Part shown: in pieces, positions 16,667-29,711 of the stretch
How the letters are laid out: the number at the start of each line of letters is the position of its first letter
How positions within the stretch are numbered: the first letter of the stretch is position 1
Source: Methanococcus maripaludis
GTDB taxonomy: Archaea; AGJL01; Methanococci; Methanococcales; Methanococcaceae
Length of the DNA: 32,000 nt
Reading direction: 5' to 3'
NCBI RefSeq assembly: GCF_002945325.1
Contig: NZ_CP026606.1
Coordinates: 1,682,919 to 1,714,918, forward strand
Made by a program: the position numbers and the translations under genes
Notes under the pieces: generated by a model
What the model saw: only the letters and a program-made list of their open reading frames with translations
Databases searched by the model: none
What the model was told of the DNA's origin: nothing

Positions 16667-17923
16667 ATGGTACTTTTAAAAAATGGAAAAATCGTGTCTG
16701 AGAATAAAATAACTGAATCTGATATCTTAATCGAAGATGGAATAATTCAAAAAATTGAAAAAAATATTGATTATTCTGGTGAAATAATTGATTTAAAAGG
16801 AAATTATGTTTTTCCAGGAATAATTGATTCACACGTTCACTTTCGTTGGGGAAATCCCGAAAAAGAAGATTTTGTTTCCGGAAGTGAAGCTGCAATTGCT
16901 GGTGGAATTGTTTATGCAATAGATATGCCAAATAACACGCCTCCTGTAACTACAAAAGACATATTTTACAAAAAAATGAAAGAAGGAAATGAACAAAGCA
17001 AGATAAATTTGTATTTTGCTTACGGAGTTACGGAAAATAACTATTTAGAAAATGTCGAAGAAGCGATATTTTATAAAATTTTTATGGTAAAATCAGTCGG
17101 CGACCTTTTTATTAGTGATTACTCAAAATTAAGGGAAATTCTTGATCAAAACAAGATTTTTGCAATTCACGCAGAACATAAAAGTATAATTTCCGAAAAT
17201 TCCAAAAAATACGAACTAAATAGTTTCGAAAACCACTGTAAAATCAGAAGTCGAGAAAGTGAGATTGAAGCAGTTAGGGAAGTTTTAAATGTTTTACAAA
17301 AAATTGATAAAGAAAGTAAAAATAAGCCTCACGTTCATTTCTGCCATATTTCAGTTAAAGAAGCGCTTGATTTAATAAAAAATGCCAAAAAAACTTTTAA
17401 AAATGTAAAAGTTACTGTTGAAGTGTCCCCTCACCATTTATTTTTAAATTCAAAAATGGCCGAAGATTTGAAAGGATGTGGAAAATTTAACCCTCCATTA
17501 AGGGAAGAAGCAGATAATCTAGCACTATTAAATGGAATTATCGATGGAACGGTGGATATCGTTGCAACGGACCACGCGCCCCATTTAATCGATGAAAAAC
17601 TAAATTTGGTCGAAAACTGCCCTTCAGGAATTCCTGGAATCGAAACACTAGTGCCATTGATTATGAATTTGGTAAACGAAGAAAAAATTTCAATTTTTGA
17701 TGCATACAGAGTTTTATCAAGAAATCCTTCAGAAATTTTTAAAATAAATAATAAGATCAAAGTTGGAAATAACGCGAATATGACTGTTGTTGATATGGAC
17801 AAAGAATACAAAATATCTGCCAAAGATTTTAAATCAAAGGCTAAATTCACGCCTTTTGAAGGAAAAACCGTTAAAGGAAAGCCTTCTGCAACATTGGTTA
17901 ATGGGAAGATATATATATTATAA
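16667..17923 (+). CDS. pyrC: Dihydroorotase (amidohydrolase superfamily)
   Basis: DSHVHFR metal-binding motif and ATDHAPH. The start is set at ATG 16667 ([10 protein letters not shown]). Confidence 0.85.
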
Positions 17924-17970
17924 TCTTTCTAAAACATATTATACTATGTAAACTTTAGAACGGTGGTAAA

Positions 17971-18066
17971 ATGACGTATAGGTCGGAACAGTCGGAAACA
18001 AAAGTAGAATCATTATGTAAATTAAGTTCATTTGAATGTGTTGTTTTATTCCAGTGGTGGCAGTAA
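17971..18066 (+). CDS. Candidate trp leader peptide, 31 aa: MTYRSEQSETKVESLCKLSSFECVVLFQWWQ*
   Basis: Hand-translated and too short for the ORF track. GGTGG SD at 17962-17966 lies 4 nt before the ATG. Tandem TGG TGG at 18055-18060 sits two codons before the TAA stop. The ORF lies 189 nt upstream of trpC. Confidence 0.5.
   Translation: MTYRSEQSETKVESLCKLSSFECVVLFQWWQ
17982..18000 (+). repeat. Tandem direct repeat GTCGGAACA / GTCGGAAACA inside the leader ORF
   Basis: Read directly from the sequence. It is unusually GC-rich for this genome's spacers. Confidence 0.6.
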
Positions 18067-18086
18067 TCACTGTGTAATTTGTTAGT

Positions 18087-18117
18087 GGACGCTATAGTCC
18101 GGTTAATTAGTATTTTT
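18087..18117 (+). terminator. Weak hairpin (GGAC-N6-GTCC) followed by T5; candidate attenuator/terminator after the leader ORF
   Basis: GGAC at 18087-18090 pairs with GTCC at 18097-18100, plus one U-G wobble. TTTTT at 18113-18117. Archaeal RNA polymerase terminates at oligo-T. Confidence 0.3.
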
Positions 18118-18181
18118 GCAGTTGTTATCAAGAATTTAGAGATATCAGTATAGTTAATATTAATATATCTAACAATACGGA

Positions 18182-18193
18182 TTAATATAAAAA
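18182..18193 (+). promoter_or_regulatory. TATA-like element proximal to trpC (TTAATATAAAAA)
   Basis: ~62-73 nt upstream of the trpC ATG. This would place a transcription start near 18210-18216, downstream of the leader ORF. Confidence 0.35.
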
Positions 18194-18254
18194 TTCTAAG
18201 TATCGACTACACGGTTCATCAATTTATTCAAGATTTAAATTTTAGAGGGCAGTT

Positions 18255-18944
18255 ATGACCATAAATTTTAAAAAACAGGCAAATGCCATAAAAAATTTTG
18301 ACAAAAACCCAATAATCGCGGAAATTAAAGTTCATTCTCCAAAATATGGCGATTTGTTGAAAGGAAGATCTGAAATGGATATTTTAAGAATATATGAAGA
18401 AGCTGGAGCAGTTGGAATTTCATATATTACTGATAAACAGCATTTCAACGGAAACTTTGACATGTTTAAAAAGATCTGCGAAAACACCGAACTTCCAGTT
18501 TTAAGAAAAGATTTTCTAACAACAAAAGACGAAATTGAAAAAACAGCAAGTGCCGGGGCAAGTACCGTTTTGATAATTGCAAGATTATTGAAAGAAAAAA
18601 CAGCTGAATTTGTAGATTTTGCACTCGAATGCGGGCTTGATACGCTTGTTGAAGTTCATAACACAGAAGAAATTGAAATTGCTAAATCTACGAACACAAC
18701 AATGATTGGAATAAACAACAGGGATATTTCAAAATTGGAACTTGATGATGGAACTGTTTCACTAACTGAAAATCTTGCAGATTTAATTCCAAAAGACAGA
18801 ATTCTTGTCAGTGAAAGTGGAATTGCTAATTTAACCGATTTAAAAACTGCATTAAAATATGCAGATGCTGCATTGATTGGAACATCATTCATGACAGCCG
18901 AAAACCAAAACGAGTTCGTAAAAAGTTTTGTTGAGGGAAAATAA
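18255..18944 (+). CDS. trpC: Indole-3-glycerol-phosphate synthase
   Basis: Family similarity (IAEIK..SP, LRKDF, SESGI). AGAGGG RBS. First gene of the operon. Confidence 0.85.
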   Translation: MTINFKKQANAIKNFDKNPIIAEIKVHSPKYGDLLKGRSEMDILRIYEEAGAVGISYITDKQHFNGNFDMFKKICENTELPVLRKDFLTTKDEIEKTASAGASTVLIIARLLKEKTAEFVDFALECGLDTLVEVHNTEEIEIAKSTNTTMIGINNRDISKLELDDGTVSLTENLADLIPKDRILVSESGIANLTDLKTALKYADAALIGTSFMTAENQNEFVKSFVEGK

Positions 18945-19909
18945 TGTTAAACAAACTAATTGAACGTGAGAATTTATCATTTGAAGAATCATATGAATTA
19001 TTTAACATGCTTTTAAATGAAAGTGAAATGAGAATAGCAGCTTATTTGGTGGCATTACAGACAAAAGGCCTAACTGCTGATGAAATTGCAGGATTTGCAA
19101 AAGCAATGAGGGATAATGCAGTTAAAATTGACCTTGGGGAAGTTACTGACACTTGCGGAACTGGCGGGGACGGTTCAAAAACAATAAACGTGAGCACAGC
19201 AGTTTCAATAATTCTTTCATGTTTTACAAAAGTTGCAAAACACGGAAACGTTTCAATTACTTCAAACAGTGGTTCGGCAAATGTTTACGAAGCACTTGGC
19301 TGTAAAATTCCAGAAACTCCTGAAGATGCAAAAAAATCAATGGATAAAACAAATTTCGCATTTTTGTTTGCTCAAAAATACCATCCTGCACTTAAAAAAA
19401 TAATGCCTGTTAGAAACGAACTGAAAGTAAAAACAATATTTAATATTTTGGGACCTCTTGCAAACCCTGCAAACCCAAAATACCAGATACTCGGAGTAAA
19501 CTCTTCAGAATTATGTGATAATGTTGCAATTGCGTTATCAAAAGTTGGGGGCATTAAAAAAGCGCTTGTGGTATATGGTAATGGACTTGATGAGTTAACT
19601 CCAAATGGCACTTCAAAGATAACTGAATATGACGGAAAATTTGACACTTACGAAGTAACTCCAAAAGACTTTGGATTGAACTACTCAAAAATAATTCCTT
19701 GTGAAAGTCCTGATGAAAGTGCAAAAAGATTAATTGATGTATTTTCGGGAAAAATCAATGAAGACAGGAATTTTATATTGATGAATGCTGCAGCTGCACT
19801 TTATACTTCAGAAATAGCGTCAGACTTCTTAGATGGTGTTGAAATTGCAAAAGAAGCGATCGAATCTGGAAAAGTCCTTAAAAAACTTGAGGAGATAAGA
19901 AATGTATAA
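18944..19909 (+). CDS. trpD: Anthranilate phosphoribosyltransferase
   Basis: CGTGGDG and KHGN motifs. TAATG overlap with the trpC stop. Confidence 0.9.
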   Translation: MLNKLIERENLSFEESYELFNMLLNESEMRIAAYLVALQTKGLTADEIAGFAKAMRDNAVKIDLGEVTDTCGTGGDGSKTINVSTAVSIILSCFTKVAKHGNVSITSNSGSANVYEALGCKIPETPEDAKKSMDKTNFAFLFAQKYHPALKKIMPVRNELKVKTIFNILGPLANPANPKYQILGVNSSELCDNVAIALSKVGGIKKALVVYGNGLDELTPNGTSKITEYDGKFDTYEVTPKDFGLNYSKIIPCESPDESAKRLIDVFSGKINEDRNFILMNAAAALYTSEIASDFLDGVEIAKEAIESGKVLKKLEEIRNV

Positions 19910-21221
19910 ATTGGATTATGTAAATCCTCTAAAACTTTATGGTGTTTTAAGGGATGAAGGAAAATATCCAGTAATGCTTGAATCAAGAGCTAAAGGGCAG
20001 ATTAATGCAAGGTACACCTATATTTCTTCAAATCCCGAATATATGCTCAGAATTGGTAATAAAACCAAAATGGACAACGAAACGATTTCAAAAGAAAGCA
20101 ACCCTTTCAAAGCTTTAAAAGAAAATTTCAAAGTTACTCAAAAAGGCGACAGATTCACCGGCGGATACGTTGGATATATTGCATATGACTGTATCCATAA
20201 CTACATTGGTGGAAAAATCGAGGAACCTTCGGTATTTGGATACTATGACCACATGTATGTTTACGATCATGAAACAAGGAATTTTTACTACCATTCTGAA
20301 AATAACAACCCAGAAGAATTAAGAAATGCTGAATTAACTGTTGAAAAAGCAAAAAATTTCAAAATCGAAGAGGAAGACGGCGGAATTGAAGTTTTGGGTT
20401 GCGATGCGGACTTAGACGACTATGTAAAAATGGTTGAAAAAACTAAAGAATATATTTATGCAGGCGATGCTTTTCAGGTCGTTCCTTCAAGAGAATATCG
20501 CTTGAAAAATGAATTTTCTGCATTTCAATTGTATAGGAATCTTAGAAAAGTAAATCCAAGTCCGTACATGTTTTTGCTCGAATTTGATAAGGACGTTGTT
20601 GGAGCATCACCTGAAACAATGGCTTCGGTTCAGAATAATATCTTAAAAGTAAACCCTATTGCAGGGACTACTGCAATTGGAAAAACTGAAAGCGAAACTC
20701 AAAAATTGGCAGAAGCACTCTTAAAGGACGAAAAAGAGCGAGCAGAACACATGATGCTTGTTGACCTTGCAAGAAACGATGTCAGAAAAGTTTCAAAATC
20801 TGGAAGTATTGTGCTTGAAAGGTTTTTCGATGTTGTAAGGTACAGCCATGTTCAGCACATCGAAAGTGAGGTGCTTGGAACATTAAAAGACAATTCGACA
20901 ATATTTGATGCAATAGAAGCTGCATTCCCGGCAGGAACTCTAACCGGAGCTCCAAAATTCAGAGCAATGGAAATTATTGATGAAGTTGAAAAATCAAGAA
21001 GAAAAATTTACGGCGGAGCTGTAGGTTATTTCTCAAACAGCGGCAATGCGGACCTTGCAATTGGAATTAGAATGGCAGAAATTGACAGCGTTTGCAGAGT
21101 ACGAGCAGGCGGAGGGGTTGTTGCTGACTCAGTACCTGAAAATGAATACTACGAAACAGAGCGGAAAATGGCCGCAATGATGAAAGCACTGGGTGTTCAA
21201 AATGATAGTGATAATAGATAA
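19902..21221 (+). CDS. trpE: Anthranilate synthase component I
   Basis: Chorismate-binding C-terminal motifs (GTLTGAPK, GGAVGY). 8-nt overlap with trpD. Confidence 0.9.
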   Translation: MYKLDYVNPLKLYGVLRDEGKYPVMLESRAKGQINARYTYISSNPEYMLRIGNKTKMDNETISKESNPFKALKENFKVTQKGDRFTGGYVGYIAYDCIHNYIGGKIEEPSVFGYYDHMYVYDHETRNFYYHSENNNPEELRNAELTVEKAKNFKIEEEDGGIEVLGCDADLDDYVKMVEKTKEYIYAGDAFQVVPSREYRLKNEFSAFQLYRNLRKVNPSPYMFLLEFDKDVVGASPETMASVQNNILKVNPIAGTTAIGKTESETQKLAEALLKDEKERAEHMMLVDLARNDVRKVSKSGSIVLERFFDVVRYSHVQHIESEVLGTLKDNSTIFDAIEAAFPAGTLTGAPKFRAMEIIDEVEKSRRKIYGGAVGYFSNSGNADLAIGIRMAEIDSVCRVRAGGGVVADSVPENEYYETERKMAAMMKALGVQNDSDNR

Positions 21222-21798
21222 CAAAGATTCGTTTGTATGGAATTTGGCAGACTATGCATCGATTTATGATTCTGTAAAAGTTGTTCCAAACACGATTTCA
21301 ATTGATGAGTTAAAAAAATTGAATCCTGATGGAATAATTATTTCACCAGGTCCCGGAGCTCCAGAAAACAAAAGAGATGTTGAAAACTGTCCTGAAATTA
21401 TAAAAACTATGGATGTACCCGTTCTTGGAGTATGTCTTGGACACCAAACAATTGCACACATATTTGGCGGAAAAGTTGGAAGAATTCCTCCGGTTCACGG
21501 AAAATCAAGTTCTGTAACCCACGATTCAAAAGGAATCTTTAAAAATGTGAAAAATCCATTTACTGCTGGAAGATACCATTCTTTATCAGTTTTAAAAGTT
21601 CCTGAAAATTTTACAGTTACTGCAACGACTGATGACGGAACAGTCATGGGAATAAGGCATAATGATATGCCAATCGAAGGAGTTCAATTTCACCCTGAAA
21701 GTGTATTAACAGAATTTGAAGAAAAAGAAGGGCTAAAAATTATTGAAAATTTTGTGAAATTCGCTAAAACATATAAATCTTTTAAAAAGGAAATTTAA
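21202..21798 (+). CDS. trpG: Anthranilate synthase component II (glutamine amidotransferase)
   Basis: GVCLGHQ catalytic Cys and FHPES. ATG 21202 is preceded by GGGTG and overlaps the trpE 3' end by 20 nt. Confidence 0.9.
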   Translation: MIVIIDNKDSFVWNLADYASIYDSVKVVPNTISIDELKKLNPDGIIISPGPGAPENKRDVENCPEIIKTMDVPVLGVCLGHQTIAHIFGGKVGRIPPVHGKSSSVTHDSKGIFKNVKNPFTAGRYHSLSVLKVPENFTVTATTDDGTVMGIRHNDMPIEGVQFHPESVLTEFEEKEGLKIIENFVKFAKTYKSFKKEI

Positions 21799-21808
21799 GT
21801 GAAAAATC

Positions 21809-22444
21809 ATGTTCATAAAAATTTGCGGAATAAAAACTCCAGAAGAACTAAGAATAGTTGAAAATTACGGCAGCGCTACCGGAGTAATTTTAGAATGTGC
21901 TTCAAAAAGAAGAATTGGTTTTGAAACAGCAAAAAATCTTGTAAATTTATCGAATATTCCTGTATTTGCAGTTTCAACAACATTCGATATTTCAGTATGG
22001 GAAAATATTATTGAATTGACAGGTACGAACTATTTACAGATGCATTCGGATATCGACCAAAAAGCAATAGATTTCATTAAAAATGAGTACGGATGCTTTA
22101 TTATGAAATCGTTTAAAATTCCTGAAACAAGCGAATCACCTGAAATTGATGCTGAAAAAATTATTTCAGAAATTGAAACTTATGAAGTTGATAGAATTTT
22201 ATTGGATACTGGAAAAGGATGTGGGCAGATTCATGACCACAGAATAAGTCAAATGATTGCAAAAAAGTTTGACATTGTTCTTGCAGGGGGTCTTGATCCT
22301 GATAACGTATTAAAAATTGTAAAATCTGTAAAACCGTTTGGAGTTGACGTTTCAAGCGGAGTTGAGAATAATAATTCAAAGGACGAAGAATTGATAAAAA
22401 AATTTTGTGAAAATGTAAAATTAGGTGAAAATTATGAAATGTGA
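21809..22444 (+). CDS. trpF: Phosphoribosylanthranilate isomerase
   Basis: MFIKICGI N-terminus, [10 protein letters not shown]-terminal motif, and its position in the operon. Confidence 0.85.
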
Positions 22445-23618
22445 AGGATACTTTGGAGAATACGGCGGGCAGTTTATCCCTGAAGTTTTGATGCCTGCAA
22501 TCGACGAGCTTAAAGAAGCATATTTTGAATTGAAAGATGATGAAGACTTTCAAAATGAGCTTTCCTACTATTTGAAAAATTATGCAGGACGTGAAACGCC
22601 GCTTTACTATGCTGAAAATTTGACCAAAAAGCTTGGCGGTGCAAAAATTTACTTAAAAAGGGAAGATTTACTTCACGGAGGGGCTCACAAAACTAATAAT
22701 ACTATCGGTCAAGCGCTGCTTGCTAAAAGAATGGGTAAAACAAGAATAATCGCAGAAACCGGTGCAGGACAGCACGGTGTTGGAACTTCAATGGCTGGAG
22801 CATTGTTTGGACTTGAAACTGAAATTTTCATGGGAAGACTTGATACCGAAAGGCAGCAACCAAACGTATTTAGAATGAAACTTCTCGGTGCAAAAGTAAC
22901 TCCTGTTGATACAGGTTCAAAAGTTTTAAAAGATGCGGTAAACGAAGCAATGAGGAACTGGACTGCAACATTTGAAAACACGCATTATTTAATGGGAACT
23001 GTTATGGGGCCACACCCTTTCCCAACGATTGTTAGAGATTTCCAGTCTGTAATTGGAAAAGAAGTTAAAAAACAAATAATGGAACAGGAAGGAAGACTTC
23101 CAGATCACTTGGTTGCATGTATTGGTGGTGGAAGTAACGCACTTGGTTTATTCCATGCATTTATTCAAGATAAAGACGTTAGAATGGTTGGAATTGAAGC
23201 TGCGGGAAAAGGACTCAACACAAGCCTTCACGGAGCCTCCATTTCAAAAGGAAAGAAAGGAGTTCTTCACGGAATGCTTTCATACTTCTTACAGGATGAA
23301 GATGGCCAAATTGAAGAAGCATACAGTATATCAGCAGGATTGGACTATCCTGGAATTGGCCCAGAACACGCATATTTACACGATTCTGGAAGAGCAGAAT
23401 ATGCATCAGCAACTGATGATCAGGCATTAAGCGCATTCATGGAACTTACAAGAAGTGAGGGAATAATTCCAGCTTTGGAATCATCACACGCGGTAGCTTA
23501 CGCAATTGAAAATGCCGGAAACATGGATAAAGATGAAATAATGGTCATAAACCTTTCAGGAAGGGGCGACAAGGATTTAAACACCGTAATTGACATCATG
23601 CAAAAAAGAGGGATGTAA
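22434..23618 (+). CDS. trpB: Tryptophan synthase beta chain
   Basis: HGGAHKTNN (PLP lysine) and GGGSNA. ATG 22434 is preceded by GGTG and overlaps trpF by 11 nt. Confidence 0.95.
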
Positions 23619-24395
23619 ATGAATAAACCAGTGTTAGTCAGTTTTTTAGTTTCTGGAGATCCAAATCCAGATGCAACATTGAAATTTATGAAAACACTCG
23701 ATAAATATTCGGGAGTAATTGAACTAGGAATCCCGTTTAGCGACCCTGTTGCAGATGGGCCAACAATTCAGGCAGCAGATGTAAGGTCTCTATCTAATAA
23801 ATTTAAAATTTCTAAATCATTTGATATATTGAAAGAATTTAGAAAAGAATCAAGTACTCCTGTAATTTTGATGACATACTACAATCCTGTATTTAAAAGA
23901 GGAATTGAAAACTTTGTAATTCAAGCAAAAGAAGCAGGTGCAAATGGACTTATTATTGTTGATTTGCCACTTCAAGAAGCAACAGAATATCGAGAAATCT
24001 GTAAAAAACACGAAATGGGAACGGTATTTCTTGCAGCACCAAACACTCCAGAAGAACGTTTAAAAATATCTGATGAAGCAAGCACTGAATTTTTGTACCT
24101 TATTTCAACTTTTGGAATCACAGGTGCAAGGGATACCTTCGAACAGATGACATTTGATTTTATTAAACGAGCAAGAACAACTTGCAAAGGAAAAATCTGC
24201 GTTGGATTTGGAATTTCAAAAGGAAGTCATGCAGAAAGTTTAATTGAACAGGGTGCTGATGGAGTAATTGTTGGAAGTGCATTTGTAGATATTATTAAAA
24301 ATTATGGGGATTCAGAAGAAGCACTTGTTAAATTAGAAGAACTTGCAAAAGAATTAAGTGAAGGAATCGATAAAGGATACGGAAAAAGAAAATAA
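23619..24395 (+). CDS. trpA: Tryptophan synthase alpha chain
   Basis: [15 protein letters not shown] motif. The ATG abuts the trpB TAA stop. Confidence 0.9.
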
Positions 24396-25642: not shown

Positions 25643-25854
25643 AAAATCCCTTTGAAATTTTTAAATTACATTTTTTCAAATTTATCCATATTTGGGCTTT
25701 TTTTACAAATAATACTTATGTATTCAATGAATTTAAACTTATTTTATGGATTTAGTAAAGTTTGAAAGATTTAGATATATTTGGGAATCTAGAAAGATAT
25801 ATAATATAAATTGAACAGATGTAAAGCTTCAACTTTAAATCATAAGGGGTTTTT

Positions 25855-26103
25855 ATGAATATAATCTATATTTTGATAGTGGGTTTAATTATCGGATATT
25901 TATTTAAAAGCAGTCTTGAAAAAGTCGATTTATCAAAACCAACAAATTTAGCACTTCTTCTTTTGATATTTTTTATGGGTGTGGAAGCTGGAAAAGTCGA
26001 TTTAAATGCATTTTCAACGTTTGTAGTTTCAATGGAATTTTCAGTCATTGTAATGGTTACAAGCCTCCTTGTGGCAGTATTTTTAGGGGGTAGGTTCAGA
26101 TGA
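25855..26103 (+). CDS. LysO/DUF340-family membrane protein, small N-terminal part (82 aa)
   Basis: Three hydrophobic helices. ATGA overlap with the next ORF. Together the two ORFs approximate a single-chain LysO (YbjE) exporter. Confidence 0.55.
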   Translation: MNIIYILIVGLIIGYLFKSSLEKVDLSKPTNLALLLLIFFMGVEAGKVDLNAFSTFVVSMEFSVIVMVTSLLVAVFLGGRFR

Positions 26104-28222: not shown

Positions 28223-28440
28223 CTCCAGAAGCTTCGTTTAAACTGGTTTACTATACGGGATTTACCAATTTTTTATTTATTGTCCTGATTATTCTTTCTT
28301 GTAGATGCGGAACTTTTTTACCGCATTCCTTTAAAAATCTAAAAATTTATAAAATAATTTTTAAATATCACTGCTACTATTGGGCGTTATTTTTAATTTC
28401 TGTAGCACTCCATTCTTATGGGGTATATTCACTAAGATAA
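28219..28440 (+). CDS. Small two-TM membrane protein translationally coupled to the cupredoxin
   Basis: ATGA overlap at 28219-28222. Two hydrophobic helices with Cys/His clusters (SCRCG..PH, YHCYYW..LH). Confidence 0.5.
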   Translation: MTPEASFKLVYYTGFTNFLFIVLIILSCRCGTFLPHSFKNLKIYKIIFKYHCYYWALFLISVALHSYGVYSLR

Positions 28441-28453
28441 GGGGGTAGAAATT

Positions 28454-28717
28454 ATGGATAAAAAATTTTTTGAATGCAAAGTTTGTGGGGACATTCATCA
28501 GGGTAAAAATGGGCCAAATCCCTGTCCAACCTGCGGATCAAAAGATTCCCAAAATGAAATCAAAGGATATACGATTGTAAAAAAATTCAGTGAATGCAAA
28601 GTATGTCAAGATTTTCACTGGGGTGAAAAAGCTCCAAGTCCATGCCCAACGTGCATGACAAAGGACTCTTACGTTGAAATTACAAAAGAAGAGCTTCCAG
28701 AAAAACTTGGAATGTAA
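28454..28717 (+). CDS. Tandem rubredoxin-like (rubrerythrin C-terminal type) metal-binding protein, 87 aa
   Basis: Two copies of C-K-V-C-x-D-x-H-x-G-x3-P-x-P-C-P-T-C. GGGGGT RBS. Confidence 0.7.
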   Translation: MDKKFFECKVCGDIHQGKNGPNPCPTCGSKDSQNEIKGYTIVKKFSECKVCQDFHWGEKAPSPCPTCMTKDSYVEITKEELPEKLGM

Positions 28718-28746
28718 CTTTTCTTTTTTAAATTTTTTTATTTTTA
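28718..28746 (+). terminator. Oligo-T terminator after the cupredoxin/rubredoxin unit
   Basis: Successive T-runs directly after the TAA stop. Confidence 0.5.
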
Positions 28747-28780
28747 TATTATTTTAGTTTTAATATCGTTTTCAGCAAGT

Positions 28781-28788
28781 TTTATATA
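28781..28788 (+). promoter_or_regulatory. Consensus archaeal TATA box TTTATATA for the membrane-protein/XRE operon
   Basis: Perfect methanogen-type TATA 86 nt upstream of ATG 28874. Confidence 0.5.
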
Positions 28789-28792
28789 TTTT

Positions 28793-28859
28793 AATGTTAA
28801 CAATATCTAACATTGAGTTAGAAATAAGTAACATAATGTTTGAAATAATTAACAGTATT
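28793..28859 (+). promoter_or_regulatory. Operator-like array of TAACA(T) half-sites, including inverted repeats and a 21-bp imperfect tandem repeat
   Basis: AATGTTA-N8-TAACATT at 28793-28814. TAACA at 28798, 28808, 28829 and 28850, giving spacings of 10, 21 and 21 bp. The 21-mers at 28818-28838 and 28839-28859 match at 16/21. Confidence 0.45.
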
Positions 28860-28873
28860 TATGGTGATATTAC

Positions 28874-29305: not shown

Positions 29306-29377
29306 GGGATTAAAATGGACAGTAAATTTAAAAATAGACTTAATTTAAAATATTTTGAAAAGATTGGGCGATATTGA

Positions 29378-29578
29378 ATGAAAACGAGGATAAAAGAATA
29401 TCGGGCAAAGTACGACATGACGCAAGAGGATCTCGGAAAAATTGTTGGAGTTAGGCGTGAAACAATAGGTTTTCTTGAAAAGGGAAAATATAATCCGTCA
29501 TTAAAACTTGCTCACGCAATTTCAAAGGCGTTGAATGTGAAAATAGATGAATTATTTATTTTTGAAGAAGATGAATAA
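29378..29578 (+). CDS. XRE/Cro-C1 family helix-turn-helix transcriptional regulator (66 aa)
   Basis: [39 protein letters not shown] is a canonical HTH_3 pattern. Confidence 0.85.
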
Positions 29579-29711
29579 GAAAAAGACGAATAAAAAAATG
29601 GAAAAATTTTATCGAAATACTTTTAAAATAAAAAGAAAGGCATCAGCAGATCATAAAATTGGCTCATCACAAGGTCAGCCGGGGATAACATCATCATTTG
29701 CCTTAATTCTT

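Follow-up and report, generated by a model that had tools for sequence, protein, structure and literature searches.

The question raised by the spacer between pyrC and trpC in Methanococcus maripaludis is whether the trp operon of an archaeon can be controlled by a leader peptide. Leader-peptide attenuation is a textbook bacterial mechanism. We analyzed a 32,000-nucleotide (nt) stretch of the M. maripaludis genome (contig NZ_CP026606.1 of assembly GCF_002945325.1, positions 1,682,919 to 1,714,918 of the forward strand). This whole stretch is called the window, and positions are given in its coordinates. In it, a short open reading frame (ORF) with two adjacent Trp codons near its end precedes the operon trpC-trpD-trpE-trpG-trpF-trpB-trpA (18255–24395, plus strand), which was identified by Pfam assignments and corresponds to MMP1008–MMP1002 in strain S2. 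A preliminary description of this region, made from the sequence alone, had proposed that the ORF belongs to a translation-sensing attenuator. It had also stated that control of archaeal trp genes is attributed to protein regulators, and this agrees with the literature on TrpY and Tar (PMC6737238). A passage in an article from 2021 (PMC8448881) calls promoter recruitment the only known target of transcription regulation in archaea, and our searches of the full-text literature found no description of an archaeal trp leader peptide. On the evidence given below, we consider it probable, though far from certain, that the ORF encodes a leader peptide whose translation signals the availability of charged tRNA-Trp to the trp operon in cis.

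The leader ORF consists of 31 codons followed by a TAA stop codon (MTYRSEQSETKVESLCKLSSFECVVLFQWWQ; 17971–18066, plus strand). The Shine-Dalgarno (SD) sequence GGTGG (17962–17966, plus strand) is located 4 nt before its ATG, and the peptide ends in F-Q-W-W-Q, with the tandem Trp codons TGG TGG, the proposed sensor, at positions 18055–18060 of the plus strand. Translation confirmed the ORF exactly as it had first been described. When the pyrC-trpC spacer of the window was subjected to 5,000 dinucleotide shuffles, an ORF of at least 12 codons with two adjacent Trp (WW) within its last four codons arose with a probability of 0.0014, and the same criterion gave chances of 0.0002–0.002 per spacer across the spacers tested (5,000 dinucleotide-preserving shuffles each). 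The leader ORF is also the only small ORF with a WW pair in the ~3.8 kb of intergenic DNA of the window. The trp enzymes themselves are poor in Trp: among their 2,056 codons are three for Trp, found singly in TrpG, TrpF and TrpB, and our recount matched the earlier count exactly. The Trp content of the long ORFs of the window (0.56%) would predict about 11.5, and we count this scarcity as part of the logic of a Trp-sensing leader.

Some genome annotations list the leader ORF merely as a “hypothetical protein”. Searches of Pfam and NCBIfam with four leader peptides at E ≤ 10 gave no family match, trp leader peptide families included, and exhaustive profile and word-index searches with the leader peptides matched Methanococcus “hypothetical proteins” and none beyond. 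Two candidates were set aside. The long proteins P0125 and P0126, matched in 9–10 stretches each by profile search, were taken as repetitive and spurious. A 58-aa antisense ORF over the leader region (17955–18131, minus strand) is probably spurious, since M. vannielii does not preserve it as an ORF.

We then compared the regions upstream of trpC in relatives, using loci fetched via exact-protein look-ups and one metagenome scan with TrpC; the scan returned 13 loci, two of which carry new leaders, and a metagenome scan for the conserved DNA block described below gave no match. The preliminary description had staked its proposal on the conservation of the ORF, its SD sequence and the WW pair, and all three are present ahead of trpC in each Methanococcus that we examined and in two other Methanococcales lineages. 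Six further M. maripaludis strains and Methanococcus sp. L107 carry an ORF ending in WW at this position. The leader of M. vannielii ends in NLVEFVVLFQWWQ (last residues VEFVVLFQWWQ), upstream of trpC on the same strand, and those of three M. voltae strains have 41–43 codons and end in VVL[FS]QWWH. In Methanothermococcus okinawensis (hereafter M. okinawensis) and its metagenomic relatives L094 and L096, the leader upstream of trpC ends in IYKMD[ST]FF.N.SNV[AV]WRWW, and in the further metagenomic lineage L086 it is MKKLNNSFLGKYPTWWC (ending in YPTWWC). The arrangement of the window, with the leader between the preceding gene and trpC and on the same strand, was found at 10 further loci.

The tandem Trp codons are invariant in all 11 distinct leaders and are always followed by the stop codon after at most one codon, which is Q, H or C where present. 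The three groups of leaders cannot be aligned with one another except at the WW pair and in the region after the stop codon, and the N-terminal two-thirds vary freely, even among M. maripaludis strains. Some M. maripaludis strains begin the leader with ATG and others with GTG, the SD sequence being retained; at an unchanged position, the leader of M. okinawensis stops with TAA and those of its relatives with TGA. Leader lengths range from 17 to 43 codons without an in-frame stop codon, and SD sequences of the GGTG type also precede the leaders of M. vannielii, M. voltae, M. okinawensis and L096. Judged from the sequences, the exchanges of start and stop codons and the frame kept over changes in length fit the pattern expected of a translated ORF. 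The gene upstream of the leader differs by lineage, being pyrC, a DUF2085 gene or, in M. voltae, a divergent Pyr_excise gene. Because this gene varies while the leader adjoins trpC, the association is with trpC.

No leader was found before the loci with a fused TrpC (L097 and L100), and no WW leader at the Archaeoglobales loci L002–L004 or at the other archaeal trpC loci fetched (L005, L008, L011, L019, L024, L028 and L104–L106). At the two fused loci, which are metagenomic and Methanococcales-like, TrpC forms the C-terminal part of a 394-aa ORF (positions 961–2145 in both L097 and L100), and the corresponding protein cluster, P0025, combines PF01933 with IGPS. Another peculiarity was seen in Methanothermococcus sp. 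SCGC AD-155-C09 (L109, positions 127–1500), where a 1.4-kb gene-free stretch with repeated ORF-like segments (WDFYFL occurs twice) precedes trpC.

The strongest nucleotide conservation lies around the leader stop codon. A block comprising the last nine codons, the stop codon and 35 nt downstream (18038–18101, plus strand) is 85–100% identical between M. maripaludis, M. vannielii and M. voltae, compared with 20–60% identity among these species in the rest of the spacer. Since the three species agree in just 38% of their trpC codons at conserved residues, the block is constrained beyond a coding role. It also forms the peak in GC content of the spacer (42%).

Two hairpins are conserved in this region. 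In hairpin A (18046–18077, plus strand), which is present in both the minimum free energy (MFE) fold and the RNAalifold consensus, positions 18046–18049 and 18052–18058 pair with 18066–18072 and 18074–18077, so that the Trp codons and the stop codon are enclosed. The pairing of CAGTG (18052–18056) with CACTG (18068–18072), on which the preliminary description had remarked, was thereby confirmed and is extended by RNAfold and RNAalifold to a hairpin of 7 + 4 bp. All seven core pairs are kept, with a single change of U-A to U-G and without two-sided covariation. In hairpin C (18086–18101, plus strand; RNAalifold consensus), positions 18086–18090 pair with 18097–18101 around the loop GCTATA. Its core, GGAC (18087–18090) with GTCC (18097–18100), and the run of five Ts (T5) at 18113–18117 were found where they had been placed before. 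The pairing of both hairpins is kept in every aligned sequence. In all three M. voltae sequences, a G-C pair of hairpin C is replaced by A-U on both sides, and a U-G pair appears elsewhere as C-G or U-A; this covariation is suggestive support for the predicted structure.

The T5 run is contained in the conserved sequence GTATTTT(T) (18110–18117, plus strand), of which TATTTT is present in all Methanococcus sequences and the preceding G in all except L093. Depending on the Methanococcus species, the T-run lies 11–26 nt past hairpin C, and only TTTGTT follows hairpin A. A U-run immediately after a terminator hairpin is thus absent from Methanococcus and was found, in shape only, in M. okinawensis and L086. 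In the MFE folds of these two, the Trp codons are located in a hairpin that closes at the stop codon, with U5–U7 immediately behind it. A 9-mer motif, TTGTTAGTG (18079–18087, plus strand; preceded by TTT at 18078–18080), begins 13 nt after the leader stop codon. It or one of its variants TTGTTAGCG, TTGTTAGTA, TTTTAAGTG and TGTTTAGTG occurs at the same distance (14 nt in two cases) in all three leader groups, the loci with the motif besides the window being L081, L084, L085, L093, L107, L083, L094, L096 and L086. A 9-mer shared at a fixed distance points to common ancestry or a common mechanism, and it could act as a pause signal, a binding site or a pairing partner. By eye, no pairing was found between the leader and the ribosome-binding site of trpC. 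A scan with bacterial-type sigma-70 promoter and terminator models, which are not relevant to archaea, flagged hairpin A only.

Published Term-seq data for strain S2 place an in vivo RNA 3' end at position 18095 (plus strand), i.e., between the leader and trpC (PMC7515710 Dataset S2, Yue et al. 2020; PMC8716108 supplementary files 17 and 18, Li et al. 2021). In these data, the end is located at position 992870 of the minus strand of the genome and is listed as the “primary TTS” (transcription termination site) of MMP1009. The flanks of two published S2 sites are identical to the window, base for base; for the 18095 site, the flank from −30 to +5 (AUCACUGUGUAAUUUGUUAGUGGACGCUAU before the end and AGUCC after it) corresponds to 18066–18100. 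The end lies 172 nt after the pyrC stop codon and 29 nt after the leader stop codon, and was supported by 32 head reads in the wild type and 62 in a strain depleted of aCPSF1 (PMC7515710, PMC8716108). A premature 3' end between leader and first structural gene, the feature expected of an attenuator, is therefore present in vivo. A further entry, at 17940, is a weak secondary 3' end (7 reads) located 17 nt after the pyrC stop codon, between the candidate TATA box of the leader and its SD sequence, close to the expected position of the leader transcription start site (TSS).

The leader region is also covered by transcripts. In the published coverage data, the pyrC-trpC spacer reaches ~49 fragments per kilobase per million (FPKM), compared with 41 for pyrC and 93 for the trp unit, and of five other spacers from the same table, four range from 0.7 to 7.5 FPKM and one reaches ~50 in the wild type. 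Thus, in the proposal that the tandem-Trp leader is an attenuator, the conserved ORF with its SD sequence and WW pair, the transcripts over the leader and the premature 3' end have stood. The terminator proposed with it, the hairpin at 18087–18100 followed by the T5 run at 18113–18117, has not: the mapped 3' end falls inside the loop of that hairpin instead.

Candidate promoters were found on both sides of the leader. A TATA-like sequence, TATATATATTATAA (17910–17923, with the box at 17910–17917, plus strand), which overlaps the last pyrC codons, is the putative leader promoter P1, and boxes of the TATATATA type precede the leader ATG by 55–80 nt in M. maripaludis, L107, M. voltae L085, L094, L096 and M. 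okinawensis. In M. voltae, the upstream gene is divergent, and the leader there must therefore have its own promoter. The leaders of L086 and M. voltae may be leaderless, as a TATA box is predicted 26–30 nt before their ATG. Downstream of the leader, a second candidate promoter, P2, is suggested by the conservation of the TATA-like sequence TTAATATA (18182–18189, plus strand; 73 nt before the trpC ATG), which aligns with TTTATATA and TTTATAGA in M. voltae, and the Methanothermococcus group has a strongly conserved AACTTATATAT 58–113 nt before trpC. Conserved TATA-like boxes between leader and trpC are located, besides 18182–18189, at 18160–18167 in the window, and at 1457 in L094, 1121 in L096 and 2894 in L083.

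From these features we infer that the ORF is translated, that ribosomes stall at its Trp codons and that stalling is linked to read-through into trpC. Transcription would begin at the promoter just upstream of the leader, and a ribosome would load at the GGTGG sequence and reach the two Trp codons near the stop codon. When Trp-tRNA is scarce, the ribosome would stall at these codons and cover approximately positions 18043–18070, occupying the 5' arm and the loop of hairpin A together with adjacent U-rich RNA. When Trp-tRNA is plentiful, the ribosome would terminate and leave, allowing hairpins A and C to fold; part of the transcripts would then end early, at 18095, and less RNA would reach trpC. 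In M. okinawensis and L086, the same logic would act on the hairpin and U-tract located right at the stop codon. The output could be termination that depends on a hairpin and U-rich RNA, the masking of a U-tract recognised by aCPSF1, or a cut of the RNA within the hairpin C loop that leads to 5'-3' decay.

Several observations weigh against this reading of the leader as a Trp sensor acting on the operon. The first concerns timing: RNA polymerase would already have passed the U-rich tract when the ribosome is at the Trp codons, so that a pause or a later-acting factor must be assumed. The second concerns the 3' end itself, which differs from most sites in that table by sitting in the loop of hairpin C instead of at a U-tract, and which the published data assign to pyrC (MMP1009). 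Its termination efficacy is ~0.28 in the wild type and 0.24 after aCPSF1 depletion (PMC7515710, PMC8716108), i.e., it is a weak site that barely depends on aCPSF1, which argues against a simple aCPSF1 model; at the T5 run, the published Term-seq data list no site. The third concerns RNA structure. The hairpins are weak, with folding z-scores versus shuffles of 0.09 (17960–18130) and −1.1 (18040–18125), and the covariation in hairpin C falls short of statistical proof because it represents essentially one evolutionary event. A hairpin B (18067–18072 with 18083–18088, 6 bp), which as antiterminator would complete a 1:2/2:3/3:4 scheme, was rejected: it has a mismatch in M. voltae L093, where its apparent covariation from A-U to G-C fails, and it scores no better than controls (102 of 500 shuffles). 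The fourth concerns the start of trp transcription. The TATA-like boxes between leader and trpC may constitute a second promoter that bypasses the leader, with which the coverage of the spacer at half the level of the operon fits; if so, the leader governs only part of trp transcription. The published table of differential RNA-seq (dRNA-seq) results has no TSS entry for MMP1008 or MMP1009, and hence none for trpC. Finally, no leader was found in the two Methanothermococcus single-cell genomes (L001 and L109), in L087 or in L103.

The alternative that survives best, unlikely as we judge it to be, keeps the same sensor with ribosomes stalling at the WW pair and gives it a post-transcriptional output: depending on where the ribosome stands, hairpin C would fold and be cut in its loop at 18095, and the 5'-3' exonucleases RNase J or aCPSF would degrade the trp mRNA downstream, so that mRNA processing and stability would be controlled instead of termination. 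The position of the 3' end between a U and an A in the conserved loop, away from the U-tract, and its near insensitivity to aCPSF1 depletion are what such a cut would leave, and a passage of PMC10515664 describes M. maripaludis as being without known 3'-5' exonucleases. Expression data for the RNA-chaperone mutant dTRAM0076 (PMC6705878, S1 dataset) also speak for it, as trpC is up 4.2-fold in this mutant, with the increase falling off towards the end of the operon (1.8-fold at trpA). These data show that the trp operon is regulated as a unit; they do not give the cause of the rise. However, no nuclease is known for the 18095 site, which is itself supported by those 32 wild-type reads only. Moreover, no hairpin C can be recognised in the M. 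okinawensis group or L086, and the U-tract directly after the stop codon there points to termination.

It is slightly less probable that the 64-nt block is the functional unit and is read by a factor other than the ribosome, either an RNA-binding protein, as in TRAP systems, or uncharged tRNA-Trp, as in a T-box, with the ORF being incidental or auxiliary. The block itself gives this explanation its weight, since the synonymous positions of the last seven codons and the 35 non-coding nt are invariant across species, for which selection on the peptide alone is insufficient. The 9-nt motif at a fixed distance from the stop codon in all groups and the UAG triplets recurring downstream of the stop codon can be read in the same way. 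To our knowledge, though no search was aimed at this point, archaea are not known to have a TRAP or T-box system. Rfam gave no match either at the gathering threshold or at E ≤ 10 over 17850–18300, the Trp_leader and T-box models included, and the conserved region has two UAG triplets versus the array of 9–11 (G/U)AG triplets of a TRAP site. The behaviour of the ORF also argues against it: an incidental ORF would not keep a start codon with an SD sequence, 17–43 codons free of stops, and a stop codon 0–1 codon past the WW pair in three lineages that cannot be aligned, nor would it exchange ATG for GTG and TAA for TGA.

Less probable than either is the explanation that the ORF and its terminator are a gene in their own right, for a small protein or small RNA, with no role in cis, and that trp is driven only from a promoter at approximately 18182–18189 under a protein regulator. 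The conserved TATA-like boxes 58–113 nt before trpC in all lineages would provide that promoter, the spacer has approximately half the RNA coverage of the operon, the ORF is followed by a 3' end, and the trp operons of other archaea have the protein regulators TrpY and Tar (PMC6737238). Nevertheless, the three leader groups have no residues in common other than the two Trp preceding the stop codon; their N-terminal parts defy alignment between groups and vary even within Methanococcus, and profile searches find the peptide nowhere else. The ORF is always directly upstream of trpC and on the same strand despite the differing upstream gene, and with termination being ~28% efficient, most transcripts continue to trpC. 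The remaining possibility, a functionless chance ORF in an AT-rich spacer, could appeal to hairpins that are no better than shuffles and to annotations that mostly leave the ORF uncalled, but it is effectively refuted by the comparative data, since an event with a chance of ~0.001 per spacer recurs in every Methanococcus examined and in two further lineages with extreme nucleotide conservation.

Read as a Trp-sensing leader, the element resembles the trpL attenuator in its sensor and position and lies outside the Trp_leader sequence families. As in Escherichia coli trpL, a short ORF led by an SD sequence is located directly before the first trp gene and has tandem Trp codons near its end. A hairpin encloses the stop codon, the first structural gene is preceded by another hairpin and a premature 3' end, and the N-terminus is free to vary. 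There are also differences. The element is archaeal and matches neither the Rfam Trp_leader model nor the leader-peptide families of Pfam and NCBIfam; it has no convincing antiterminator pairing, its U-run does not directly follow the downstream hairpin, and its 3' end falls in a hairpin loop. Termination in its host involves oligo-U and aCPSF1/FttA, and a second promoter is possible downstream of the leader.

Cys-rich upstream ORFs (uORFs) of mycobacteria reportedly act on translation of the next gene. These leaderless attenuators, as outlined in a preprint (bioRxiv 10.1101/834739), are similar to the present leader in being short uORFs rich in the cognate residue, at which ribosomes stall in a scheme other than the enterobacterial one; unlike it, they are bacterial, and here trpC starts ~190 nt after the leader stop codon. 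With leader peptides controlling factor-dependent termination, such as the Rho-dependent tnaC system of E. coli and Salmonella mgtL, the leader shares the possibility that a ribosome held near the leader stop codon could mask the RNA beside it, which in the M. okinawensis group and L086 is a tract of U5–U7; according to a passage in PMC8716108, U-tracts are what aCPSF1 recognises. However, the aCPSF1 dependence of the mapped 3' end is weak, and tnaC senses free Trp via its nascent peptide and induces a catabolic operon, whereas starvation would here be sensed at Trp codons to control a biosynthetic one. TrpY of Methanothermobacter and Tar (TK0271) of Thermococcus kodakarensis, where the trp gene order is likewise trpCDEGFBA (PMC6737238), also make a trp operon respond to Trp. 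Both bind DNA at promoters, whereas in the window we see an ORF and RNA structure and nothing pointing to their operators. A protein regulator, e.g., at the candidate second promoter, and control by the leader could coexist.

The surrounding genes are arranged as follows. Pfam assignments gave the order pseudouridine synthase, amidohydrolase (pyrC; MMP1009 in S2), trpC, D, E, G, F, B, A and a convergent Nre gene. The TrpC of the window shares 99% identity with M. maripaludis proteins. The definition of MMP1008–MMP1002 as an operon was taken from PMC10450193 and PMC7515710; Dataset S1 of the former also flags an internal TSS at trpE (MMP1006). The pyrC-trpC spacer comprises 331 nt (17924–18254) and had been described as visibly less AT-rich than the other spacers. 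This holds against most short spacers, which have 13–23% GC compared with its 29%, but not against several longer ones with 26–36%. Three long spacers (28223–28873, 29306–29711 and 25656–26099), with 26–31% GC and no ORF of at least 110 aa, may hold small genes or RNAs. Rfam at the gathering threshold gave zero matches over the whole window, and a tRNA scan likewise gave none.

We regard the wider proposal as evenly balanced between being right and wrong: that Methanococcales regulate an amino-acid operon by a leader peptide sensed by the ribosome, as the first case of leader-peptide attenuation in Archaea, with stalling deciding between RNA folding and exposure of the U-tract and thereby termination, possibly by aCPSF1/FttA, or a cut ~30 nt downstream. 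If true, the coupling between transcription and translation would be exploited for regulation in Archaea, in organisms with an RNA polymerase and a termination system related to those of eukaryotes. A conserved Trp leader would bear on the functional coupling of ribosome and RNA polymerase in archaea, on how termination by oligo-U and aCPSF1/FttA is modulated, and on whether attenuation predates the split between the domains or evolved on two occasions. As a genetically tractable species in which CRISPR and Term-seq are established, M. maripaludis allows these questions to be tested. The finding also draws attention to a class of small ORFs, so far unannotated, that may precede other archaeal amino-acid operons.

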